A model generated the notes under the pieces. That model was not told the origin of the DNA. It made no database searches and saw nothing but the letters and a program-made list of their open reading frames with translations. Positions 1,536 to 61,049 of a DNA stretch of 64,000 bases are shown one piece after another. Each line of letters opens with the position of its first letter. Position 1 is the first letter of the stretch. Source of the DNA: Candidatus Anstonella stagnisolia (GTDB lineage Archaea; Micrarchaeota; Micrarchaeia; Anstonellales; Anstonellaceae); assembly GCA_902384585.1 (NCBI GenBank), contig CABMCJ010000004.1:770086-834085 (forward strand), read 5' to 3'. The position numbers were made by a program, and so were the translations under genes.

Positions 1536-3185
1536 TTATTGGAACTCGTTGAATTCCTTCAGGCTTGTCTGTTTTTTTATTGCGGCGCGCGCCGGGGATT
1601 TTGAAAGGGCTGGCTCGGATTGTTTTTCCGGTGCTTGCGTTTCATGCTGCCGGGGGCTTTGCGCTCTTGCTGCCTCATTCGTTTTTGCTTGCTGTTTTTC
1701 ATAGGATGCGGGCGCTCTTGCTTCCTTTTTTGCCTTTAAAGAGCCTACCCCGTAATCAGCCATCCCCTGCACAAGGGTTTTCATTTTCTTTTCGCGGTTT
1801 TTTGAAGCCCAGTAGAATGCCTCATCGCGCGTCCCTTTTGTGAGGAGCACGAATACCTTGCCTGCCTTTGCGCGCCCTGCGCGCCCGCGCCGCTGTATTG
1901 AGCGGATTTCACTTGGGATTGGCTCGAAAAATACCACAGTGTCTACGAGCGGGATGTCGAGCCCCTCCTCGCCTATTGAGGTTGCTACCATCACGTCGAA
2001 CTCGCCGTTTCGGAAAGCCTCTATTGTGAGCTTTTGCTGCTCCTGGGTGAAACCTTCCTTTTTGCCCATGAAGGTGCGGGAGCGTATTTTGTGCGCAACA
2101 AGCTCCTGCGAAATGTGCTCCACTTGGTTTCTGTACTGCGCAAACACGAGGTATTTTTCTTCTGGCGAGGACTTTATGAGCTCAACAAGAGCTGCAAGCT
2201 TGGGGTGCTCGCCTGCCTCTTCCAAGAGATGCTCGAATTTTGCAAAGCGGTAGTCCTGCAAAAGGCGCGCGCTTGCTTTTGTTTGGGTGCGTGTGCGTAT
2301 TTTTTCTATGTACTTTTTGCAAGTGGAAACGCCTTGGGTTTCAAGAAGCTCAAGGATGTGCACTAAATTAAAGAGGGTGGAATGGTGCGAGAGCGCTGCG
2401 AATCTTCTTCCGCCCTTGTCTGCGAGGATGCGCGCACGAAGTTCTAGGAGGGGTTTTTTTGAGTAGAAGCGGCTGAAAAAGCCCATTCCCTTGAGTTTCT
2501 CTGCCTGCTCTTTTGCCATCTGGTCTGCGATTTCCTTTGCTGCGAGCATCTCTTTTCCAAGCTCTACTGGGATGTAGCGCACATCAAGGGCTTTTACGTA
2601 TTGGGAAATTTTAGGGTCGGATGCATCAAGGATTTGCACGTTTTTTATGAGGAGCGCATCTACGATTTCCTGTATTTTCTTCTTGTTGCCGCCTGGGGAG
2701 GCAGTCAATCCTGCAAGAAGTGCATTTTTTGCGGCTGCGGCTTTTGCGACTAGCGTGTAAGAGTAATTCCCGACTGCGCGGTGCGCCTCGTCAAAAATGC
2801 AAAGGGACGCCCCGTCAAGGGAAAGCCTGCCTGCAAGCAAATCATTCTTTATGCACTGGGGAGTGGAGATTATGATGCGCTTTTTGTAAAGCTCGGCGCG
2901 TTTCGCTGCTTGAATTTTTCCGCTAATGAGCTCGACGTCCTCTGCGGTTGCGCTTGTTTGCGCGAGAAGGGTCTTGAGGTGCTGCTCGCAAAGCGGGCGG
3001 GTGGGCGCGAGAAGGAAGCACCTTCCCTCTTTTGATTTTTGGGAGATGAGGAGGAATGCGATAAGGGTTTTCCCCAAGCCCGTGGGGAGCACTACGAGGG
3101 TGTTGCCGTTTTGGAGCACAGAATTCGCTATCTCAAGCTGGTAGGAACGGGGAGGAAGCTTGAGGGAAATATCTGCGGGTGCCAT
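1536..3185 (-). CDS. SF2 DEAH-box helicase of the Hef/FANCM (ERCC4-related helicase) family; helicase core only, no nuclease domain; low-complexity tail ending in a PIP-like box
   Basis: 549-aa ORF with Walker A VVLPTGLGKT, DEAH box IFDEAHRAVG and motif VI SIQRRGRAGR. The C-terminus is ...KKQTSLKEFNEFQ. Confidence 0.8.
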   Translation of the reverse strand: MAPADISLKLPPRSYQLEIANSVLQNGNTLVVLPTGLGKTLIAFLLISQKSKEGRCFLLAPTRPLCEQHLKTLLAQTSATAEDVELISGKIQAAKRAELYKKRIIISTPQCIKNDLLAGRLSLDGASLCIFDEAHRAVGNYSYTLVAKAAAAKNALLAGLTASPGGNKKKIQEIVDALLIKNVQILDASDPKISQYVKALDVRYIPVELGKEMLAAKEIADQMAKEQAEKLKGMGFFSRFYSKKPLLELRARILADKGGRRFAALSHHSTLFNLVHILELLETQGVSTCKKYIEKIRTRTQTKASARLLQDYRFAKFEHLLEEAGEHPKLAALVELIKSSPEEKYLVFAQYRNQVEHISQELVAHKIRSRTFMGKKEGFTQEQQKLTIEAFRNGEFDVMVATSIGEEGLDIPLVDTVVFFEPIPSEIRSIQRRGRAGRAKAGKVFVLLTKGTRDEAFYWASKNREKKMKTLVQGMADYGVGSLKAKKEARAPASYEKQQAKTNEAARAQSPRQHETQAPEKQSEPALSKSPARAAIKKQTSLKEFNEFQ

Positions 3186-3247
3186 TTTCTCACTGCACCA
3201 ATAATAAGAGCAAAATGGTTAAAAGGTGCAGGAGTTTGGGAGGCTCA

Positions 3248-4978
3248 TCAGGTTTGCGTCTGGAAGCCCATTCTGCTTGCCTGCTGGACTCGTTTGGGCG
3301 GCAGAACTTCGGAAACCTTCTGCGCATTTATCCTAAACAGGATGTTTGTTTTTGCAGGGCCGTCATTAAAGACGAGGTTGGAAAGTTGCGCGTCGAACAC
3401 TTTGTCCACCATGTGGTTGAGCGACCTGCAACCACCGCCTGCCTGCACTGCGCGTTCAGCCAGTGGGGCATATGCATCATCGCTGACTTCAACGTTTATT
3501 CCGAGTGCGTTCATCCTGTTTATGTTTCTTACAAGTGCATTGTCTTTGCCTTCCCTCAGCACCCTTTCCAAATCAGCTTGCCCAAGCTCGCCAAGGGGTT
3601 TTATCGATTCTATCCTGCCTGCCATTTCCTGTGTGAAGCCCACAAGATGGACCAGATCGTTCTGCGAGAGCATGTCAGTCGGCATTGGCTGCACAAACGA
3701 GAGTGAATCCGCGAATATTATCAAGCCGCTAAATGGCAATTCCTGTATTTCGTGCTGCGGCCCGGTTGAAACCGTAAGTTTTGCGCCCGGCTCCACAAGC
3801 TTGAGAAATTCATTTTGCAATTGGAAGGAAAACGAATCGTTCTGCGAGCCTTTTTGGAGTATTTTGGCAAATTCATCGAAATAAAATATCATCCTGTTTG
3901 GATAGCCCCCGCATTTTTCTATCATTGCCGTGAGCTTTGTGAATAGCAAATCTGAAACATTCACCCCTTTGTAACCTGATGCCGTGAAATTTGGGGAGGA
4001 AATCTCGGAAACAGGTATGCCTGAAATTGAGGAAATAATGCGGATTGAGAGGGTTTTGCCGCTTCCTGTGGGGCCGGAGAGCAACAAAGGGTGGGATTGC
4101 GCAGAAGGGTCGGCTATGTATTTGGCAATTTTTAGCACGATGCTTTTCAATTGCTCGTCTTGGGCAATCACGCTCTGCCTTACGGAAGTGTAAAGCCCTA
4201 GGCAATAATCGCTGAATGCTGCGAAATTGCATTGCAGGGAAGCCGCCATGCCGTTTGTAACGTCCACAAGGGGCAGGTTTGGGGGAAGTTCGGGCTGCTC
4301 AACGCTGCCTTTCTCAGCGCTTGTTTGGGGCGAGGCTGCTGTGATTGCCATGGGCGCGTGCTTGCGGACTATGGCCATGCGTGTTTGTTCATCAGGCAGG
4401 TTCAGGCAGATATCCTGTGCTAAATCACGGGTTGTCATTTTGCCGTTCAGCGTGTCGAATATGCTATCCACCAGGGTGTATTCCGTCCCTACCTTGGTAT
4501 TTCTGCAGATTTCGTAGAAAGAGCCTTTTTTATAAAAAAAATCAGCCAGCAAGCGGGCGTCAAGTTCCATGCTCTCGGGCATTACCGCCACGCAGACTTT
4601 TGCAAGGTCAAGGAGCAAGCCGACTGGCATGAGGTTTTTGCTAGTGGGGGGCGAAATGCTGTTTCCGCGGAATTTAAAGTGGTACTCCGGTTCATCTTCG
4701 CTATCAACTGATTTGACCAGTTCGAGCATGTGTTTTCTGCCTGAAGCAAATGGCAACGTTTCGTGTATGCTGTTTAATGGCACGAATTTCTCGTATATTA
4801 AGTAATAGATATAATCGATATAGTCGCGCTGGTTGAAAAATGTTGGCAAATTGTTAAGGTTATCCATGGCACCGGAGGACCTCATCAGCATCCTGAGGAA
4901 TTCATAGTCAAAATGAAAATAGCTGGGCGGGGATGCTGATGCCGGATTATTGTCTCTTTTAACCATTTGTATCAACAT
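3248..4978 (-). CDS. ClpX-like AAA+ ATPase with an unrecognised ~280-aa N-terminal domain
   Basis: 576-aa ORF. The C-terminal half tracks ClpX by eye. Walker A is LLLSGPTGSGKT; SGYKGVNV sits at the GYVG pore-loop position; Walker B is MIFYFDEFAKI. GRIESIKPLGELGQADLERVL matches ClpX GRLPV..L.EL....L, and GGGCRSLNHMVDKVF matches ClpX GARGLRSI. There is no N-terminal zinc-binding domain. The segment where the ClpP-docking IGF loop would sit looks too short. Confidence 0.7.
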   Translation of the reverse strand: MLIQMVKRDNNPASASPPSYFHFDYEFLRMLMRSSGAMDNLNNLPTFFNQRDYIDYIYYLIYEKFVPLNSIHETLPFASGRKHMLELVKSVDSEDEPEYHFKFRGNSISPPTSKNLMPVGLLLDLAKVCVAVMPESMELDARLLADFFYKKGSFYEICRNTKVGTEYTLVDSIFDTLNGKMTTRDLAQDICLNLPDEQTRMAIVRKHAPMAITAASPQTSAEKGSVEQPELPPNLPLVDVTNGMAASLQCNFAAFSDYCLGLYTSVRQSVIAQDEQLKSIVLKIAKYIADPSAQSHPLLLSGPTGSGKTLSIRIISSISGIPVSEISSPNFTASGYKGVNVSDLLFTKLTAMIEKCGGYPNRMIFYFDEFAKILQKGSQNDSFSFQLQNEFLKLVEPGAKLTVSTGPQHEIQELPFSGLIIFADSLSFVQPMPTDMLSQNDLVHLVGFTQEMAGRIESIKPLGELGQADLERVLREGKDNALVRNINRMNALGINVEVSDDAYAPLAERAVQAGGGCRSLNHMVDKVFDAQLSNLVFNDGPAKTNILFRINAQKVSEVLPPKRVQQASRMGFQTQT

Positions 4979-5076
4979 ATATATTTGTTATGAAAAGTTT
5001 AAAAAGATATAACATTAGTCCCACATTTATTCTTTCGCAGGGAAAGTATTTTATCCTGCATCTCCAATATAGTGCC

Positions 5077-5712
5077 ATGAACACTACCACGGTTGGCGGA
5101 GTGAAAATCACTTTTTTTGGGCATGCGAGCTTTACGCTGGAGGGAAACGGCGTGCTTGTTGCAGTTGACCCGTTCGCGCCCATGCATTTGCAGCACCCCG
5201 CGGACGTTGTGCTGCACACGCACAACCATTTTGACCATTGCGATGAGGAGAAGACTGAGAAAGTGTCTAAATTCAACACTGTGCTAATCGGCACGAACTG
5301 CAGGCATCCGTGTCGGCTTCTGAAAATAGGGGAGAGCATAAAGGTCGGGGGAATCGGGATACTTGCCGTGCCTGCGTACAACGTTGGGAAGCCATATCAC
5401 GCGCGGGATGCAAATTGCGCGGGGTATATCCTTGCGTTTGGGACTACGAGGATTTACGTTGCAGGTGACACGGACGAGATACCTGAGATGGAAAAATACA
5501 AGTGCGATGTTGCGCTTTTGCCAATTGGGGGCACGTACACCATGGACGCTGCAGCTGCTGCAAGGGCGTGCGCGAAAATAAACCCAAGGATAGCGATACC
5601 TGTGCACTATGGGTACCTTGATGAAACAAAGGGGGATGCAATACTCTTTAAGCAGCTTGTGGAAAGGGAAACTGCTGGAAAAACAGAAGTAAGAGTGCTG
5701 ACGCCTGCCTAG
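5077..5712 (+). CDS. MBL-fold metal-dependent hydrolase (UPF0173-like)
   Basis: ORF 4990..5712. Start moved to ATG 5077 (MNTTTVGGVKITFFGHASFTLEG...). HTHNHFDHCD metal-binding motif. A paralog lies at 48565..49227. Confidence 0.75.
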   Translation: MNTTTVGGVKITFFGHASFTLEGNGVLVAVDPFAPMHLQHPADVVLHTHNHFDHCDEEKTEKVSKFNTVLIGTNCRHPCRLLKIGESIKVGGIGILAVPAYNVGKPYHARDANCAGYILAFGTTRIYVAGDTDEIPEMEKYKCDVALLPIGGTYTMDAAAAARACAKINPRIAIPVHYGYLDETKGDAILFKQLVERETAGKTEVRVLTPA

Positions 5713-37377: not shown

Positions 37378-38859
37378 ATGCTTTTCACGCAGAAATACTC
37401 GCCCCATTCCCTCGCCGAGCTGGCAGGGAACGAGGAGGCATTTTCAAAAATGCGCCGCTGGGCGTTCCTGTGGGCAAAAGGGGAACGCCCGCAGCCGCTT
37501 CTTCTTTTTGGCCCCTGCGGCGTTGGGAAAACATGCAGCGTGCATGCCCTTGCAGAGGAGTTCAGTTGGGACCTTCTCGAGCTCAACAGTTCCTCGAGCC
37601 GAACCTCCGAGGCAATCTCGGATTTCCTTGGCGCAGCCTCTTCTTCCTCGGGCCTTTTTGGCAACAAAAAACTCCTTCTTATAGATGACGCTGATTTTGC
37701 TGCAGGCGAAGACCGCGGCAGTGCGTCTGCATTCGCAAAAATAGCATCGTCCGCGCAGCAGCCGCTCATCATAACCGCAACAGACGCATACAACAAAAAC
37801 CTTGCACCGCTTCGCGGAATTTGCGAAAAAACCGAGCTCAAGAAGGTGAATGTGCACGCGCTCCTTTTAGTCCTCAAGCGCGTGTGCAAGGCTGAAAAAA
37901 TCCAGCTTTCAGACGAAGAACTTTCCCTTATCGCGCAGAATTCGCAAGGTGACGTGCGCGCAGCCCTGAACGATTTGCAGGCGCGCAATTTCTCCCCTCT
38001 CTCGCGCGAGCGCGAAAAAAACATTTTCGAGGTCGTGCGCGGCATCTTCAAGGCAACAAAATATTCCGAGTGCCGCCCTCTAATGATGTCATGTTCCGTC
38101 CCAAACGACACGCTCAAGCTCTGGATAGAGGAGAACATCCCCATAGAATACGAAAAGCCCTCGGACATCGCAGCCGCGTTCAATTCGCTCTCGCGCTCCG
38201 ATATGTTTGACGGCAGGATAAGAAACCGCCAGTACTGGGGCTTTTTGCGCTACTCAACCGACCTCATGGGCGCGGGCGTTGCACTTTCAAAGGAGGCGCC
38301 CTACCGGAAATTCACCGCATACGCGTACCCCTCCTACATACGCACAATGGGCGCAACAAAGGAAAAGCGCTCCATACGCAAATCCCTCTCGCGCAAGTTC
38401 GCAACAAACTTCCACTGCTCGCTTTGGGCAGGCATGGACTATGTGCAACTTTTTACCTTGTTTGCAAAGCAGGACGCAGCGCACACCTGCGCAGCATACT
38501 CAATAGAGGTTCCGGAACTCGCATACCTTCTTGGCACTACTTCTGAAAAAGCGCAAAAGCTTCTTGAAGGCAAAGGGGAAAACCCCAAAAAACCCAAAAA
38601 ATCAAACGCCGCAGCAAGCGAAAAACCGCAAGAAGTTCCCGCCGTACTTCCCCCCGGCAAAAAAACCCGGCAAAAGAGCGCGAAAAAAGAAACCGTTGCA
38701 GGAAAAACCGCAGAAAAAACACCCATGCCAGAAAAAGGCCCCGCATCCGGCGCAAAAAACGAACCCCCAAAATCCACCCCTGCCGAAAAAACAGGCAAAA
38801 ACCCTCCTGAGGAAAAACAAAAATCTTCTGGCAGGCAGTCAACACTGGGGTTCGACTAG
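37378..38859 (+). CDS. rfcL: Replication factor C large subunit with a Lys/Pro-rich tail and a C-terminal PIP-like box
   Basis: Start moved to ATG 37378 (MLFTQKYSPHSLAELAGNEEA). Walker A is LLFGPCGVGKT, Walker B is LLLIDDAD and SRSD is present. The C-terminus is ...GRQSTLGFD. Confidence 0.85.
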   Translation: MLFTQKYSPHSLAELAGNEEAFSKMRRWAFLWAKGERPQPLLLFGPCGVGKTCSVHALAEEFSWDLLELNSSSSRTSEAISDFLGAASSSSGLFGNKKLLLIDDADFAAGEDRGSASAFAKIASSAQQPLIITATDAYNKNLAPLRGICEKTELKKVNVHALLLVLKRVCKAEKIQLSDEELSLIAQNSQGDVRAALNDLQARNFSPLSREREKNIFEVVRGIFKATKYSECRPLMMSCSVPNDTLKLWIEENIPIEYEKPSDIAAAFNSLSRSDMFDGRIRNRQYWGFLRYSTDLMGAGVALSKEAPYRKFTAYAYPSYIRTMGATKEKRSIRKSLSRKFATNFHCSLWAGMDYVQLFTLFAKQDAAHTCAAYSIEVPELAYLLGTTSEKAQKLLEGKGENPKKPKKSNAAASEKPQEVPAVLPPGKKTRQKSAKKETVAGKTAEKTPMPEKGPASGAKNEPPKSTPAEKTGKNPPEEKQKSSGRQSTLGFD

Positions 38860-58598: not shown

Positions 58599-58664
58599 AA
58601 TATCACCGATTTGTTATGTAATTCCACCTTCCCTTTTTATTAAGTTTGCTTGCGCCGGATATTT

Positions 58665-61049
58665 ATGGTTTTGAGAAAGGCATTCCTGCTTGATGTAGAC
58701 TACACACACAAGAAGGGCAAGACGTACGTGCGCCTGCTGCTCAAGGGAAAGCACACCTTCCGCCTGTACGATTCCTACGAGCCCTATTTCTACGTTGATG
58801 CGCCCGAATCCGAAAAAGAAAGCATAATGAAAATCTCCCTTGAGCACAACGGGGAAAAAATCGCCCCGGTGCGCGTTGAAACCGCGCACAAAACCGTTTT
58901 TGGGAAAGAAAAAAAGCTACTAAAGGTTTTCTGCTCCTCCCCCTCACACGTTCCCCACATTTCCGCAAAAATACAGCATCCTGTATTTGAAAACAACATC
59001 CTTTTCGGCAGGCGCTACATGATAGACAAAGGGCTCTCGCCCTTCTCGCTTCTCATATACGAACGAGATGGAAAATTCCTCAAAAAAATTGTGAAAGTAA
59101 AGGACGGAATTCCCAAGCTCAACTCGCTCGCATTCGACATAGAAACCTACAACCCAATAGGCGCGCCCCGCCCGGAAAAGGACCCTGCGATAATGATAAG
59201 CTACGCAAACGGGATGCAGGGCGTGCTCACTTACAAAAAAATAAACAAGCCCTTTGTGCTTGCGAAAAAATCCGAGGCCGAAATGATTTCCTCTTTCTGT
59301 TCCGTGCTGAACGAAACAGACACGGACATACTTTTCGGCTACAATAGCTCCAATTTCGACCTTCCCTACCTCCAAGCGCGCGCGGATGCGCTCAAAATAA
59401 AATTCCCAATAGGGCGCGACAAGCGCTCTTTCATTCTCCGCAAGGCAGGCATGCGCGAAATGGCAAAGATAGGCGGAAGGGTGCACATAGACCTCTACCC
59501 CGCAATCCGCTTCCTATCTTTCATAGGCGCGCTCAAGGCATCCAAGTTCACCCTCGAAGCCGCATACTCTGAAATAACCGGCAAGCAAAAATACATGGTA
59601 AAGCGGCTCGAAATCCACCAGATGTGGGACAGCAAGGACGAGGCGGTGCGCGAGGAGCTTGCCCACTATTCAATGCAGGATTCCATTGCAACAAAGGAGC
59701 TCGGCGCGATTGTTCTCCCGCTTCTTATGGAAATAAGCCGCCTCACAAAAATGCCCCTCTTTGACACCGCATACGCAACCGCTGGGCAGCTCGTGGAATC
59801 CCTCCTGATATACCGCTCATACGAGGCAAACACAATCGTCCCCCCAAAACCAACTGACATGCAGGCAAAGGAGCGCGAGGCGCACCCGATAGAGGGTGCA
59901 TTCGTAAAGCTCCCCACAGCCGGCATATACGAGAACATCGCAGTATTTGACTTCCGCGGCCTGTACCCCTCCATAATTACCTCGCACAACATAGACCCCT
60001 ACACGCTCAACTGCTCCTGCTGCACAAAGGCTGAAAGTTTTGTTTCGCCCCTTGGGCACCGCTTCTGCAAAAAGAAAAAAGGGCTCATCCCGACCGTGCT
60101 TGGCGACGTGGTCGCAAAACGCGCAGCGCTTAAGGACAAGCTCAAGCACGTGCAAAAGGACACAGAGGAATACCGCACGCTCTTTGCAAGGGTGCAGGCG
60201 CTCAAGATAATCGCCAACTCCTACTACGGCTACCTCGCGTACGCGCGCTCGCGCTGGTACGCGCGCGAGGCAGGCGAGTCCGTAACCGCGTGGGGCCGCC
60301 ACTACATCCAGGAGACAATAAAGAAAGCAGAAGATGCAGGCTTCCAAGTGCTCTACGGCGACACAGACTCTGTTTTCCTGCTCTTAGGAAAAAAAGGAAA
60401 AGAAGACGGGCTCGCATTCATGAAAAAAATAAATTCCGAGCTCCCCGAGGGAATGGAGCTTGAGCTTGAGGGCTTTTTCAAGCGCGCGGTGTTTGTCTCA
60501 AAAAAAGGCGGCGAGGCAGGCGCAAAGAAAAAATACGCAATGCTTGGCGAGGATGGGCGCATAAAAATCCGCGGCTTCGAGCTCGTACGGCGCGACTGGT
60601 CCTCAGTTGCAAAAGACACGCAGCGGAAAGTGCTCGAGGCAATACTTGTGCACGGCAGCAAGGAAAAGGCGGTCGGGATTGTACGCGACGTTGTGGAAAG
60701 ATTGCGAAGCGGAAAAGTCCCACTTGAAGAACTCGCAATTTACACCCAGATAAGCAAGGACCCAAAAAAATACGAAATAACCTCCCCCGAAATTTCAGCC
60801 GCAAAAAAAGCAATAGCGCGCGGGGTGCACGTTGAAAAGGGTAGCATAATCGCATTTGTAATCTCAAAGGGCGGCTCCACGATTTCCGAAAAGGCAACTC
60901 CCCTTGAGTTCGCAACAAACTACGATGCCCAGTACTACATAGACCACCAGATACTTCCCAGCGTGCTGAAAATACTCAAGGAGCTCGGCTTTTCCGAGGA
61001 CGATTTAAAATTCAAAGGGACGCAAAAAGGGCTCGAGCATTTCATGTAG
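58665..61049 (+). CDS. polB: Family B DNA polymerase with a C-terminal PIP box
   Basis: Exo I is LAFDIETY, motif A is DFRGLYPSII, motif B is KIIANSYYGY and motif C is YGDTDSVF. The C-terminus is ...GTQKGLEHFM. Confidence 0.95.
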   Translation: MVLRKAFLLDVDYTHKKGKTYVRLLLKGKHTFRLYDSYEPYFYVDAPESEKESIMKISLEHNGEKIAPVRVETAHKTVFGKEKKLLKVFCSSPSHVPHISAKIQHPVFENNILFGRRYMIDKGLSPFSLLIYERDGKFLKKIVKVKDGIPKLNSLAFDIETYNPIGAPRPEKDPAIMISYANGMQGVLTYKKINKPFVLAKKSEAEMISSFCSVLNETDTDILFGYNSSNFDLPYLQARADALKIKFPIGRDKRSFILRKAGMREMAKIGGRVHIDLYPAIRFLSFIGALKASKFTLEAAYSEITGKQKYMVKRLEIHQMWDSKDEAVREELAHYSMQDSIATKELGAIVLPLLMEISRLTKMPLFDTAYATAGQLVESLLIYRSYEANTIVPPKPTDMQAKEREAHPIEGAFVKLPTAGIYENIAVFDFRGLYPSIITSHNIDPYTLNCSCCTKAESFVSPLGHRFCKKKKGLIPTVLGDVVAKRAALKDKLKHVQKDTEEYRTLFARVQALKIIANSYYGYLAYARSRWYAREAGESVTAWGRHYIQETIKKAEDAGFQVLYGDTDSVFLLLGKKGKEDGLAFMKKINSELPEGMELELEGFFKRAVFVSKKGGEAGAKKKYAMLGEDGRIKIRGFELVRRDWSSVAKDTQRKVLEAILVHGSKEKAVGIVRDVVERLRSGKVPLEELAIYTQISKDPKKYEITSPEISAAKKAIARGVHVEKGSIIAFVISKGGSTISEKATPLEFATNYDAQYYIDHQILPSVLKILKELGFSEDDLKFKGTQKGLEHFM

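Follow-up and report, generated by a model that had tools for sequence, protein, structure and literature searches.

A ClpX/HslU-branch AAA+ protein of Micrarchaeota with an unassigned N-terminal module and a conserved IGF-like C-terminal tail

Gene and domain organization

The window analyzed here is a 64,000-nt stretch of contig CABMCJ010000004.1 (770,086–834,085, forward strand) from Candidatus Anstonella stagnisolia, a small symbiotic archaeon of the DPANN group (Micrarchaeota), and all positions refer to this whole stretch unless another contig is named. Located at 3248–4978 on the reverse strand (−) is the coding sequence of a ClpX-like AAA+ protein, a single long open reading frame (ORF) of 576 amino acids from an ATG at 4978. 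The 576-amino acid protein is called P0001 and the source genome G000. From its N- to its C-terminus, P0001 has a family-specific N-module, a linker predicted to be disordered, an AAA+ module composed of a large and a small subdomain, and a flexible tail that carries an IGF-like tripeptide close to its end. All features of the protein given below are likewise on the reverse strand.

Unfoldases of the ClpX/HslU type are regarded as bacterial or organellar and as tied to ClpP or HslV, and regulated proteolysis in archaea is thought to use PAN, Cdc48, and Lon. P0001, a stand-alone protein, falls in the ClpX/HslU branch of AAA+ ATPases (HCLR-type, single-module). It is not a ClpX orthologue, as score, domain content, loops, partner, and phylogeny all speak against this, and the label "ClpX-like" is right only at the level of the AAA+ branch.

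ATPase module

The ~330 C-terminal residues of P0001 form a complete AAA+ module of the ClpX/HslU type. The large subdomain (3599–4261, ~residues 240–460) was delimited by Pfam, a PDB sequence match, the structural model, and Foldseek, and the small subdomain (3305–3598, ~residues 461–558) by a weak Pfam match to ClpB_D2-small, PDB, alignment, and the model. A first-pass annotation, made from the sequence of this DNA alone, had listed the ClpX-type blocks GPTGSGKT, GYKG, the Walker B DE, GRI..I..L.EL, and G..G.RSL, and all of these are present. Walker A, GPTGSGKT, is formed by residues 302–309 (4052–4075). The pore-1 loop GYKG (residues 335–338, 3965–3976) is at the position of GYVG in ClpX and HslU, and its tyrosine is nearly invariant in the family to which P0001 belongs. 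Walker B, IFYFDEF, spans residues 364–370 (3869–3889) and contains D368 and E369. The arginine-finger block MAGRIES (3605–3625), with MAGRIESIKPLGEL at residues 452–465 of P0001, includes R455, which is equivalent to R307 of ClpX and invariant in the family. The sensor-2 block GGGCRSL (residues 514–520, 3419–3439) includes R518, the equivalent of ClpX R370. With Walker A and B, a pore-1 tyrosine loop, an arginine finger, and a sensor-2 arginine, P0001 has every element for an ATP-driven hexameric translocase.

Pfam recognizes only a generic AAA domain in P0001, along with the weak ClpB_D2-small match. The top two matches in NCBIfam are the ClpX equivalogs NF003745 and TIGR00382, at 67.7 and 55.6 bits; these scores are 5–7 times under the respective cut-offs of 359 and 370.75. 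HslU (TIGR00390) is third, at 33.3 bits against a cut-off of 362. When P0001 was compared with PDB sequences by phmmer, ClpX was again best (E about 1e-13) and HslU next. With a 20-sequence family alignment as input, AlphaFold gave a model that is confident at residues ~230–560, and the PDB chains at Foldseek ranks 1–50 are all ClpX, with a template-modeling (TM) score of about 0.7 on target. Bacterial ClpX (TIGR00382/NF003745; PDB 3hws, 6wrf, and 8e91), which also has a single AAA+ module, is hence the best match in both sequence and fold, while HslU is the second-best family and has a sister-type AAA+ module. The first-pass reading of the ATPase as ClpX-like, and not as PAN, Cdc48, or Lon, the AAA+ families common in archaea, is borne out by NCBIfam, the PDB sequences, and Foldseek alike.

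No match to the zinc-binding domain PF06689 (zf-C4_ClpX) was found in P0001, and the CxxC...CxxC block is absent in an alignment with E. coli ClpX; P0001 has instead a ~260-amino acid N-terminal region of unrelated, unassigned fold, and the first-pass annotation had likewise left this part of the protein unassigned. The RKH loop is shortened and lacks R-K-H (TGPQH-EIQ in P0001 versus GGRKHPQQEF in ClpX), and the pore-2 region is shortened as well. The internal IGF-loop segment is deleted, with about 25–35 residues fewer than in ClpX in an alignment with E. coli ClpX and HslU, and the spacing from Walker B to the arginine finger is 83 amino acids in P0001 versus 117–119 in ClpX, so that the loss of this loop, already suspected in the first pass, is confirmed. 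The site of the ClpX IGF loop is occupied by the sensor-1 strand LIIFADSLSF and a short linker (residues 419–440, 3659–3724), which contain no IGF motif. At the site of the HslU I-domain, no insertion is seen in P0001 in the same alignment.

C-terminal tail

The conserved tail of P0001 was missed in the first pass. This flexible segment (residues 559–576, 3251–3304), defined from the family alignment and the model, is basic-flanked and contains the IGF-like tripeptide MGF (residues 570–572, 3263–3271), and the protein ends ...SRMGFQTQT. Tails in the family follow a common pattern, in which Lys/Arg-rich residues are followed by [I/V/M/F]-G-F and then by 0–7 residues up to the C-terminus, as in ...KKIGF, ...QRVGF, ...KRIGFRS, ...RRIGFG, and ...YKMGFAAT. 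Of the ~30 closest representatives, 24 have an [ILVMF]GF motif within the last 12 residues, and no such ending is seen among ~120 zinc-less ClpX-like proteins at a greater distance or among 17 canonical ClpX proteins; the background for such a terminal motif is 0.8% (8 of 1015 ORFs of the source genome). The motif also occurs in the homologues encoded by genomes G020, G061, G085, G142, G062, G174, and G070. G571 and F572 make up two of only 14 invariant columns in the 20-sequence alignment, beside the arginine finger and the sensor-2 arginine. In the model of P0001 the tail is unstructured, with a predicted local distance difference test (pLDDT) score of ~56.

The Walker B to arginine-finger spacing is 73–83 amino acids for most family members versus 90–119 amino acids outside of the family. 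The nearest zinc-less relatives outside the clade keep the internal IGF loop, with basic flanks similar to those of the tail (...NSIGFS..., ...KYIGFG..., and ...SRPMGF...). Such relatives include the zinc-less ClpX-like proteins of Firmicutes and phages (phrog_4339; P0048–P0170), which are nearest to the family among outside proteins, share its ATPase core, and carry, where the zinc finger would be, an N-terminal region that is variable. Most of those whose loop can be located by regular expression keep the internal IGF (spacing 90–112 amino acids), however, and none is GF-tailed. Judged from these alignments, family members have lost the docking-type motif from the loop and have it on the tail.

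Docking through C-terminal tails has precedents. PAN and Cdc48, by means of HbYX (hydrophobic-tyrosine-any residue) motifs, and mycobacterial Mpa, by means of GQYL, dock in this way onto the 20S proteasome. PAN/Rpt, Cdc48, and Mpa are hexameric unfoldases whose flexible C-terminal tails enter pockets of the 20S α-ring; these ATPases belong to the classical AAA clade, though, and their motif is fixed at the extreme end and has a penultimate tyrosine, whereas hydrophobic-G-F in the family lies 0–7 residues from the end. An HbYX motif is not present at the extreme C-terminus of P0001. Docking onto ClpP is the only known function of IGF/IGL loops (PMC7112951). HslU docks onto HslV and activates it through a C-terminal tail that has a critical aromatic residue, and among characterized ATPases of the ClpX/HslU branch it has the docking architecture closest to the one proposed here (PMC4106860). 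The tail of HslU differs in ending ...FIL with a buried terminal carboxylate, and P0001 is without the I-domain of HslU and its genome without HslV. The tripeptide of P0001 resembles that of ClpX in being of IGF type with small or basic flanks, but sits on the tail and not on a loop. From the role of IGF in ClpX, and from tail docking in HslU, PAN, Cdc48, and Mpa, we infer a docking element: the analogy suggests that the GF tail binds some partner.

Three other proteins of the source genome end in a basic-flanked [I/L]GF, namely ...KKPAASIGFVKMLN (C2:37235–38560, +), ...RKKSLGFSIFDLRH (C4:503388–504938, −), and ...RRESRLGFL (C4:130828–131391, +). These could have a partner in common with the ClpX-like tail, or the likeness could be due to chance.

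N-terminal module

The family-specific N-module of P0001 (4364–4927, ~residues 18–205) aligns with a ~140-amino acid module of its relatives and carries insertions. It starts with the motif YFHF (4910–4921) and contains DFFYKKG (4523–4543). Most family members have in common the pattern YF.F...W....DF.Y ... RL.R..GYL ... DI..F..KG.I..FL ... YV.G, and in the metagenomic relatives P0035 and P0038 the module occurs twice in tandem. Between the N-module and the AAA+ module of P0001 is a Pro/Ser/Ala-rich linker (residues 209–236, 4271–4354) that is predicted to be disordered (pLDDT <50 at residues 201–225).

Pfam gave no match for the ~260 N-terminal residues of P0001 or for 17 N-modules of the family. 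A word-indexed search with residues 1–240 of P0001 recovered only the protein itself, and a profile search for stand-alone N-modules found none. The N-module of the relative P0023 was modeled with a pLDDT of 84.9 and a predicted TM score of 0.77 as an α/β fold, in which a five-stranded sheet is followed by five helices. Foldseek found no match for this model in the PDB (best E 1.2, TM ≤ 0.28) or in BFVD (best E 0.45). The N-module thus appears, as modeled, to have a fold without detectable sequence or fold relatives in Pfam, the PDB, and BFVD. The novelty claimed for this region in the first pass therefore stands with respect to proteins outside of the family, but the module is common to the family and not peculiar to P0001. 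From its position, the N-module is likely to be a substrate- or adaptor-recognition domain.

Family and distribution

An exhaustive phmmer comparison of P0001 with 1.8 billion representatives yielded 659 proteins at E ≤ 1e-10, of which 17 reach E ≤ 1e-30. Nearly all of these matches, including all of the 17 best, are confined to residues ~255–540, and the lengths of the N-terminal regions vary. The family consists of about 25–30 sequence clusters, chiefly from the same Micrarchaeota order, and has no established name; P0001 is therefore not the orphan it had been taken for. The nearest relatives are from other Micrarchaeota, at 30–44% identity, and the family also includes metagenomic sequences. 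A family gene was found in 11 of 176 species-representative genomes of the same order, with two of the 11 being weak and tail-less, and in seven of 401 genomes sampled across the phylum, all seven from this same order. A pattern scan of 185,579 species gave close matches in Micrarchaeota only. Carriers amount to ~5% of the genomes of the order, and among named genomes the family was found only in this order of Candidatus Micrarchaeota.

IQ-TREE (LG+C20, quick search) was used to calculate a tree of 59 AAA+ modules, which does not settle how the deepest branches are ordered. The family groups into a single clade on a long stem (1.49) with a Shimodaira–Hasegawa-like approximate likelihood ratio test (SH-aLRT) value of 100. 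It is separate from HslU and from the zinc-finger ClpX proteins, whose own clade has a value of 97, and a FastTree calculation on 168 rows agrees with this placement. The relationship to bacterial ClpX proposed in the first pass consequently holds for the ClpX/HslU branch but not for the zinc-finger ClpX clade, outside of which the family falls. These sequence comparisons define a distinct and previously unnamed family, which is characterized by the N-module, the lack of a zinc finger, the deletion of the IGF loop together with a short RKH loop, and the GF tail. In the literature, we found no paper joining ClpX with Micrarchaeota, and searches for ClpX with DPANN or for "ClpX-like" with archaea returned only unrelated topics.

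Several members depart from the common organization. P0031 (707 amino acids) has two tandem ClpX-like AAA+ modules and a single terminal IGFR tail. P0005 (L003 2368–4617) and P0046, which are encoded on AT-rich contigs, form a sub-branch inside the clade in which the AAA+ module is N-terminal and both the N-module and the GF tail are absent; the AAA+ module is followed by a Lys/Glu-rich, coiled-coil-like stretch and then by a C-terminal domain of ~250 amino acids. On the 5.3-kb contig of P0005, none of the four completely called neighbors has a Pfam match, the two genes at the contig ends being left out of this count. Genome G070 has a second, fragmented family copy spread over two contig ends (C35:3827–4297 and C27:27–509), and some genomes thus carry paralogues.

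Peptidases and proteasomal ATPases of carrier genomes

The source assembly has 1.33 Mb in 6 contigs and is 89% complete. No match to ClpP (PF00574) was found in the window, as the first-pass annotation had noted, or in the whole assembly, and the best E-value in a tblastn search with E. coli ClpP was 1.4. By PF00574, ClpP is absent from the carrier genome G020 as well. Weak PF00574 matches in other carriers were rejected as ClpP, as these partial matches are membrane-anchored SppA-like S49 peptidases. The only real one among carriers is a 98-bit ClpP-like match in G174 (L014, C16:17368–17775), which has an in-frame TAA and does not share a contig with the ClpX-like gene; contamination or a pseudogene may account for it. 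HslV was excluded as a partner, since HslV queries match the 20S β gene only.

Genes for the α and β subunits of the 20S proteasome are present in all 11 carrier genomes, and in the source genome the α gene is located at C2:130032–130580. The PAN equivalog TIGR01242 exceeds its cut-off in one of the 176 genomes of the order, with a match at a contig end in G085, and elsewhere in the order matches only the ATPase domains of ~720-amino acid Cdc48-type proteins. Of the classical proteasomal ATPases, the order appears to have the Cdc48 type alone. The source genome itself encodes a Cdc48-like protein ending ...DSMFR, a membrane-anchored double-AAA protein, and a TPR-AAA protein.

Genomic context and composition

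The first-pass annotation considered the gene to be compositionally foreign, which is refuted by comparison with the rest of the genome. Among 1015 long ORFs, the gene ranks at the 19th percentile in GC content (0.483, z −0.73) and at the 33rd percentile in GC content at third codon positions (0.559). AGA and AGG account for 15 of the 24 arginine codons (62.5%, 75th percentile; 43% in the genome) and CGC for seven, as compared with the nearly exclusive use of AGG/AGA described before. By synonymous-codon likelihood, the gene ranks at the 17th percentile among the 545 genes with 300 or more amino acids (z −0.68), with the N- and C-terminal halves being alike. All of these values are within about one standard deviation of the ORFs of the genome, an outcome of the kind that the first-pass annotation had itself named as counting against its claim.

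Neighboring genes in the window have housekeeping functions. They encode a P-type ATPase, a Hef-like SF2 helicase with a C-terminal PCNA-interacting peptide (PIP) box, a metallo-β-lactamase (MBL) hydrolase, a flavin reductase, PRPP synthetase, thymidylate kinase, and inositol-1-phosphate synthase. No mobile-element genes were found among the Pfam-annotated neighbors in the window. The Hef-like helicase gene (1536–3185) is on the same strand and begins 62 nt downstream of the ClpX-like gene, as described before. At other family loci, the flanking genes encode RuBisCO, purD, a DEAD-box helicase, a beta-CASP nuclease, a class I tRNA synthetase, and SRP54.

Genome G001, from the same genus, has a collinear region with the order P-type ATPase, Hef, slot, and MBL, at 70–78% nucleotide identity. 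The slot itself (L061, C23 4867–6228; equivalent to ~3190–5040 of the window) contains an unrelated gene on the opposite strand, which encodes a 453-amino acid protein with SLFN_AlbA_2, HATPase_c_4, and DIP2311-like_C domains. The slot is therefore variable and the ClpX-like gene accessory: it is missing from the slot of the congener, patchy across the order, and in no conserved operon. That its codon usage is ordinary and its relatives are from Micrarchaeota only speaks for a gene long resident in the lineage and not for one recently imported from bacteria. Of the horizontal acquisition envisaged in the first pass, the accessory and patchy character is thus retained, but there is no sign of a recent transfer or of a bacterial donor.

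A role in defense or in a mobile element, which had also been raised, is likewise not borne out by the surroundings. The best PADLOC match is DolB (E 4.7e-4, 17.5 bits), which is not significant and covers the P-loop only, and there are no defense or mobile-element genes in the context. Matches in PHROGs are limited to uncharacterized ClpX-like families (phrog_4339 at E 3e-18), and those in a phage collection are remote (E of at least 8e-10).

Proposed mechanism and alternatives

The best overall explanation, to which we assign a probability of roughly 0.6, is that P0001 belongs to a family of ClpX/HslU-branch unfoldases that dock onto a partner by means of a C-terminal IGF-like tail. In such a machine, the N-module would pick substrates or adaptors on the top face of the hexamer, and the pore loops would thread and unfold the substrate. 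The C-terminal tails would dock the ring onto its partner, as do the internal IGF loops in ClpX and the tails in HslU, PAN, Cdc48, and Mpa. Since ClpP and HslV are missing from the genomes and PAN is nearly absent from the order, the 20S proteasome would be the most likely partner, with P0001 acting as an accessory, second proteasomal unfoldase beside Cdc48. This step, taken alone, is an analogy that we put forward only tentatively. The still broader possibility of a third kind of archaeal proteasome-associated unfoldase, in which the motor was re-targeted from ClpP to the 20S or another ring peptidase, the IGF motif moved to the tail, and the N-module came to select private substrates, we consider doubtful.

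Several observations weigh against the explanation preferred here, and some of them more narrowly against a classical α-pocket mode or a general role. The distance from GF to the C-terminus varies between 0 and 7 residues in the family, and classical docking of HbYX into the 20S α pockets needs the terminal carboxylate, so that the mode of binding would have to differ from that of HbYX. The tail is absent from four members of the clade (P0034, P0045, P0005, and P0046) and is thus dispensable for some function. The idea of a general replacement for PAN is weakened, as PAN is missing order-wide (175 of 176 genomes) and the gene is present in only about 5%; the protein is not a general PAN substitute. 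No conserved neighbor, peptidases included, was found in 11 loci in an all-versus-all BLAST of their ORFs. In addition, the N-terminal region of P0001 itself models poorly, with pLDDT <40 at residues 1–120 and about 70 at residues 121–200.

The first-pass annotation had proposed a ClpP-independent remodeller, and P0001 may indeed be a peptidase-independent remodeller or disaggregase, the tail of which would serve self-regulation, ring assembly, or adaptor binding. ClpX is able to remodel without ClpP, as seen with MuA and with mitochondrial CLPX. The genome has no ClpP or HslV, no peptidase is a conserved neighbor of the gene, and some clade members are without the tail or have a large C-terminal domain in its stead (P0005 and P0046). 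The G-F of the tail is as conserved as the catalytic arginines, however, and the basic flanks of the tail resemble those of the IGF/IGL loops of the relatives and of ClpA, for which peptidase docking is the sole known role. Internal regulation also leaves unexplained why the motif reappears exactly upon loss of the internal loop. Independence from the absent ClpP accordingly stands, but the conserved tail, which had not been considered, suggests docking onto a partner, and we judge a peptidase-independent remodeller to be less likely than a docking unfoldase, though a serious alternative.

We regard as improbable that the tail is a degenerate PIP-like peptide which recruits the unfoldase to PCNA at sites of replication or repair, together with the adjacent Hef-like helicase. 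There are glutamines just upstream of the motif in P0001 (QQASRMGF), and the RFC large subunit (37378–38859, +; C4:807463–808944) ends ...RQSTLGFD, with L-G-F in a shortened PIP; the Hef-like helicase ends KKQTSLKEFNEFQ and PolB (~58650–61049) ends QKGLEHFM, and at two other homologue loci there are DEAD-type helicase neighbors. The glutamine is not conserved in the tails of the family, though, most of which are K/R-K/R-x-[IVM]-G-F, and the spacing misfits Q-x-x-[LIM]-x-x-[FY]-[FY], to which the other PIPs of the genome conform. Hef is also present without the ClpX-like gene in the congener, and the helicase neighbors elsewhere are from different families. The patchy distribution, and the occurrence of ClpX-like proteins in phages (phrog_4339 and the remote phage matches), would fit a ClpX gene that was acquired recently from a bacterium or a virus and, in an archaeon without ClpP, is now decaying, being non-functional or on its way out. 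This we hold to be highly improbable: the frame is intact with all catalytic residues kept, the gene is like the rest of the genome in composition and codon usage, the nearest relatives are Micrarchaeota in a deep and well-supported clade of their own, the neighbors are housekeeping genes without mobile-element genes among them, and both the N-module and the tail are conserved across the family.

The family shows the same motor as in bacterial ClpX and HslU in Micrarchaeota genomes without ClpP or HslV. Its docking-type tripeptide is on the C-terminal tail, the place from which HslU and the proteasomal ATPases dock, and the family thus offers a concrete example of a possible change of peptidase by an unfoldase in evolution. 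It also has an N-domain that is confidently modeled in P0023 and yet is without a counterpart in the PDB or BFVD. For the biology of DPANN, P0001 would be an accessory proteostasis factor in about 5% of the genomes of the order, which may relate to particular hosts or niches.

Start codon, promoter, and flanking spacers

The public gene call for this locus (P0004) begins four codons later than P0001, at an ATG at 4966, and the resulting 572-amino acid form is more likely than the 576-amino acid form to have the true start. A TATA-like sequence, TTTTTAAA (4998–5005, −), was identified by eye 20–27 nt upstream of the ATG at 4978 and 32–39 nt upstream of the ATG at 4966, within the AT-rich divergent promoter region described below. 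TTTTTAAA fits a candidate archaeal TATA box for a leaderless or short-leader transcript.

The ORF for the MBL-fold hydrolase (Lactamase_B_3; 4990–5712, +) is divergent to the ClpX-like gene. Its orthologue in the congener starts at the equivalent of Met30, at ~5077 in the window, and the ORF is thus probably over-extended at its 5' end. The two genes would then be separated by an AT-rich divergent promoter region of ~100 nt and not by a gap of 11 nt. The GC content is 0.38 in 4801–5100, around the 5' end of the ClpX-like gene, and this low value, which had been read as a mark of foreign origin, would be owed in large part to the promoter region.

In the 62-nt spacer between the ClpX-like and Hef-like genes is an inverted repeat, CTGCACC-N25-GGTGCAG (3193–3231), with TTTTAA inside its loop. 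This repeat may be a terminator or a promoter element.

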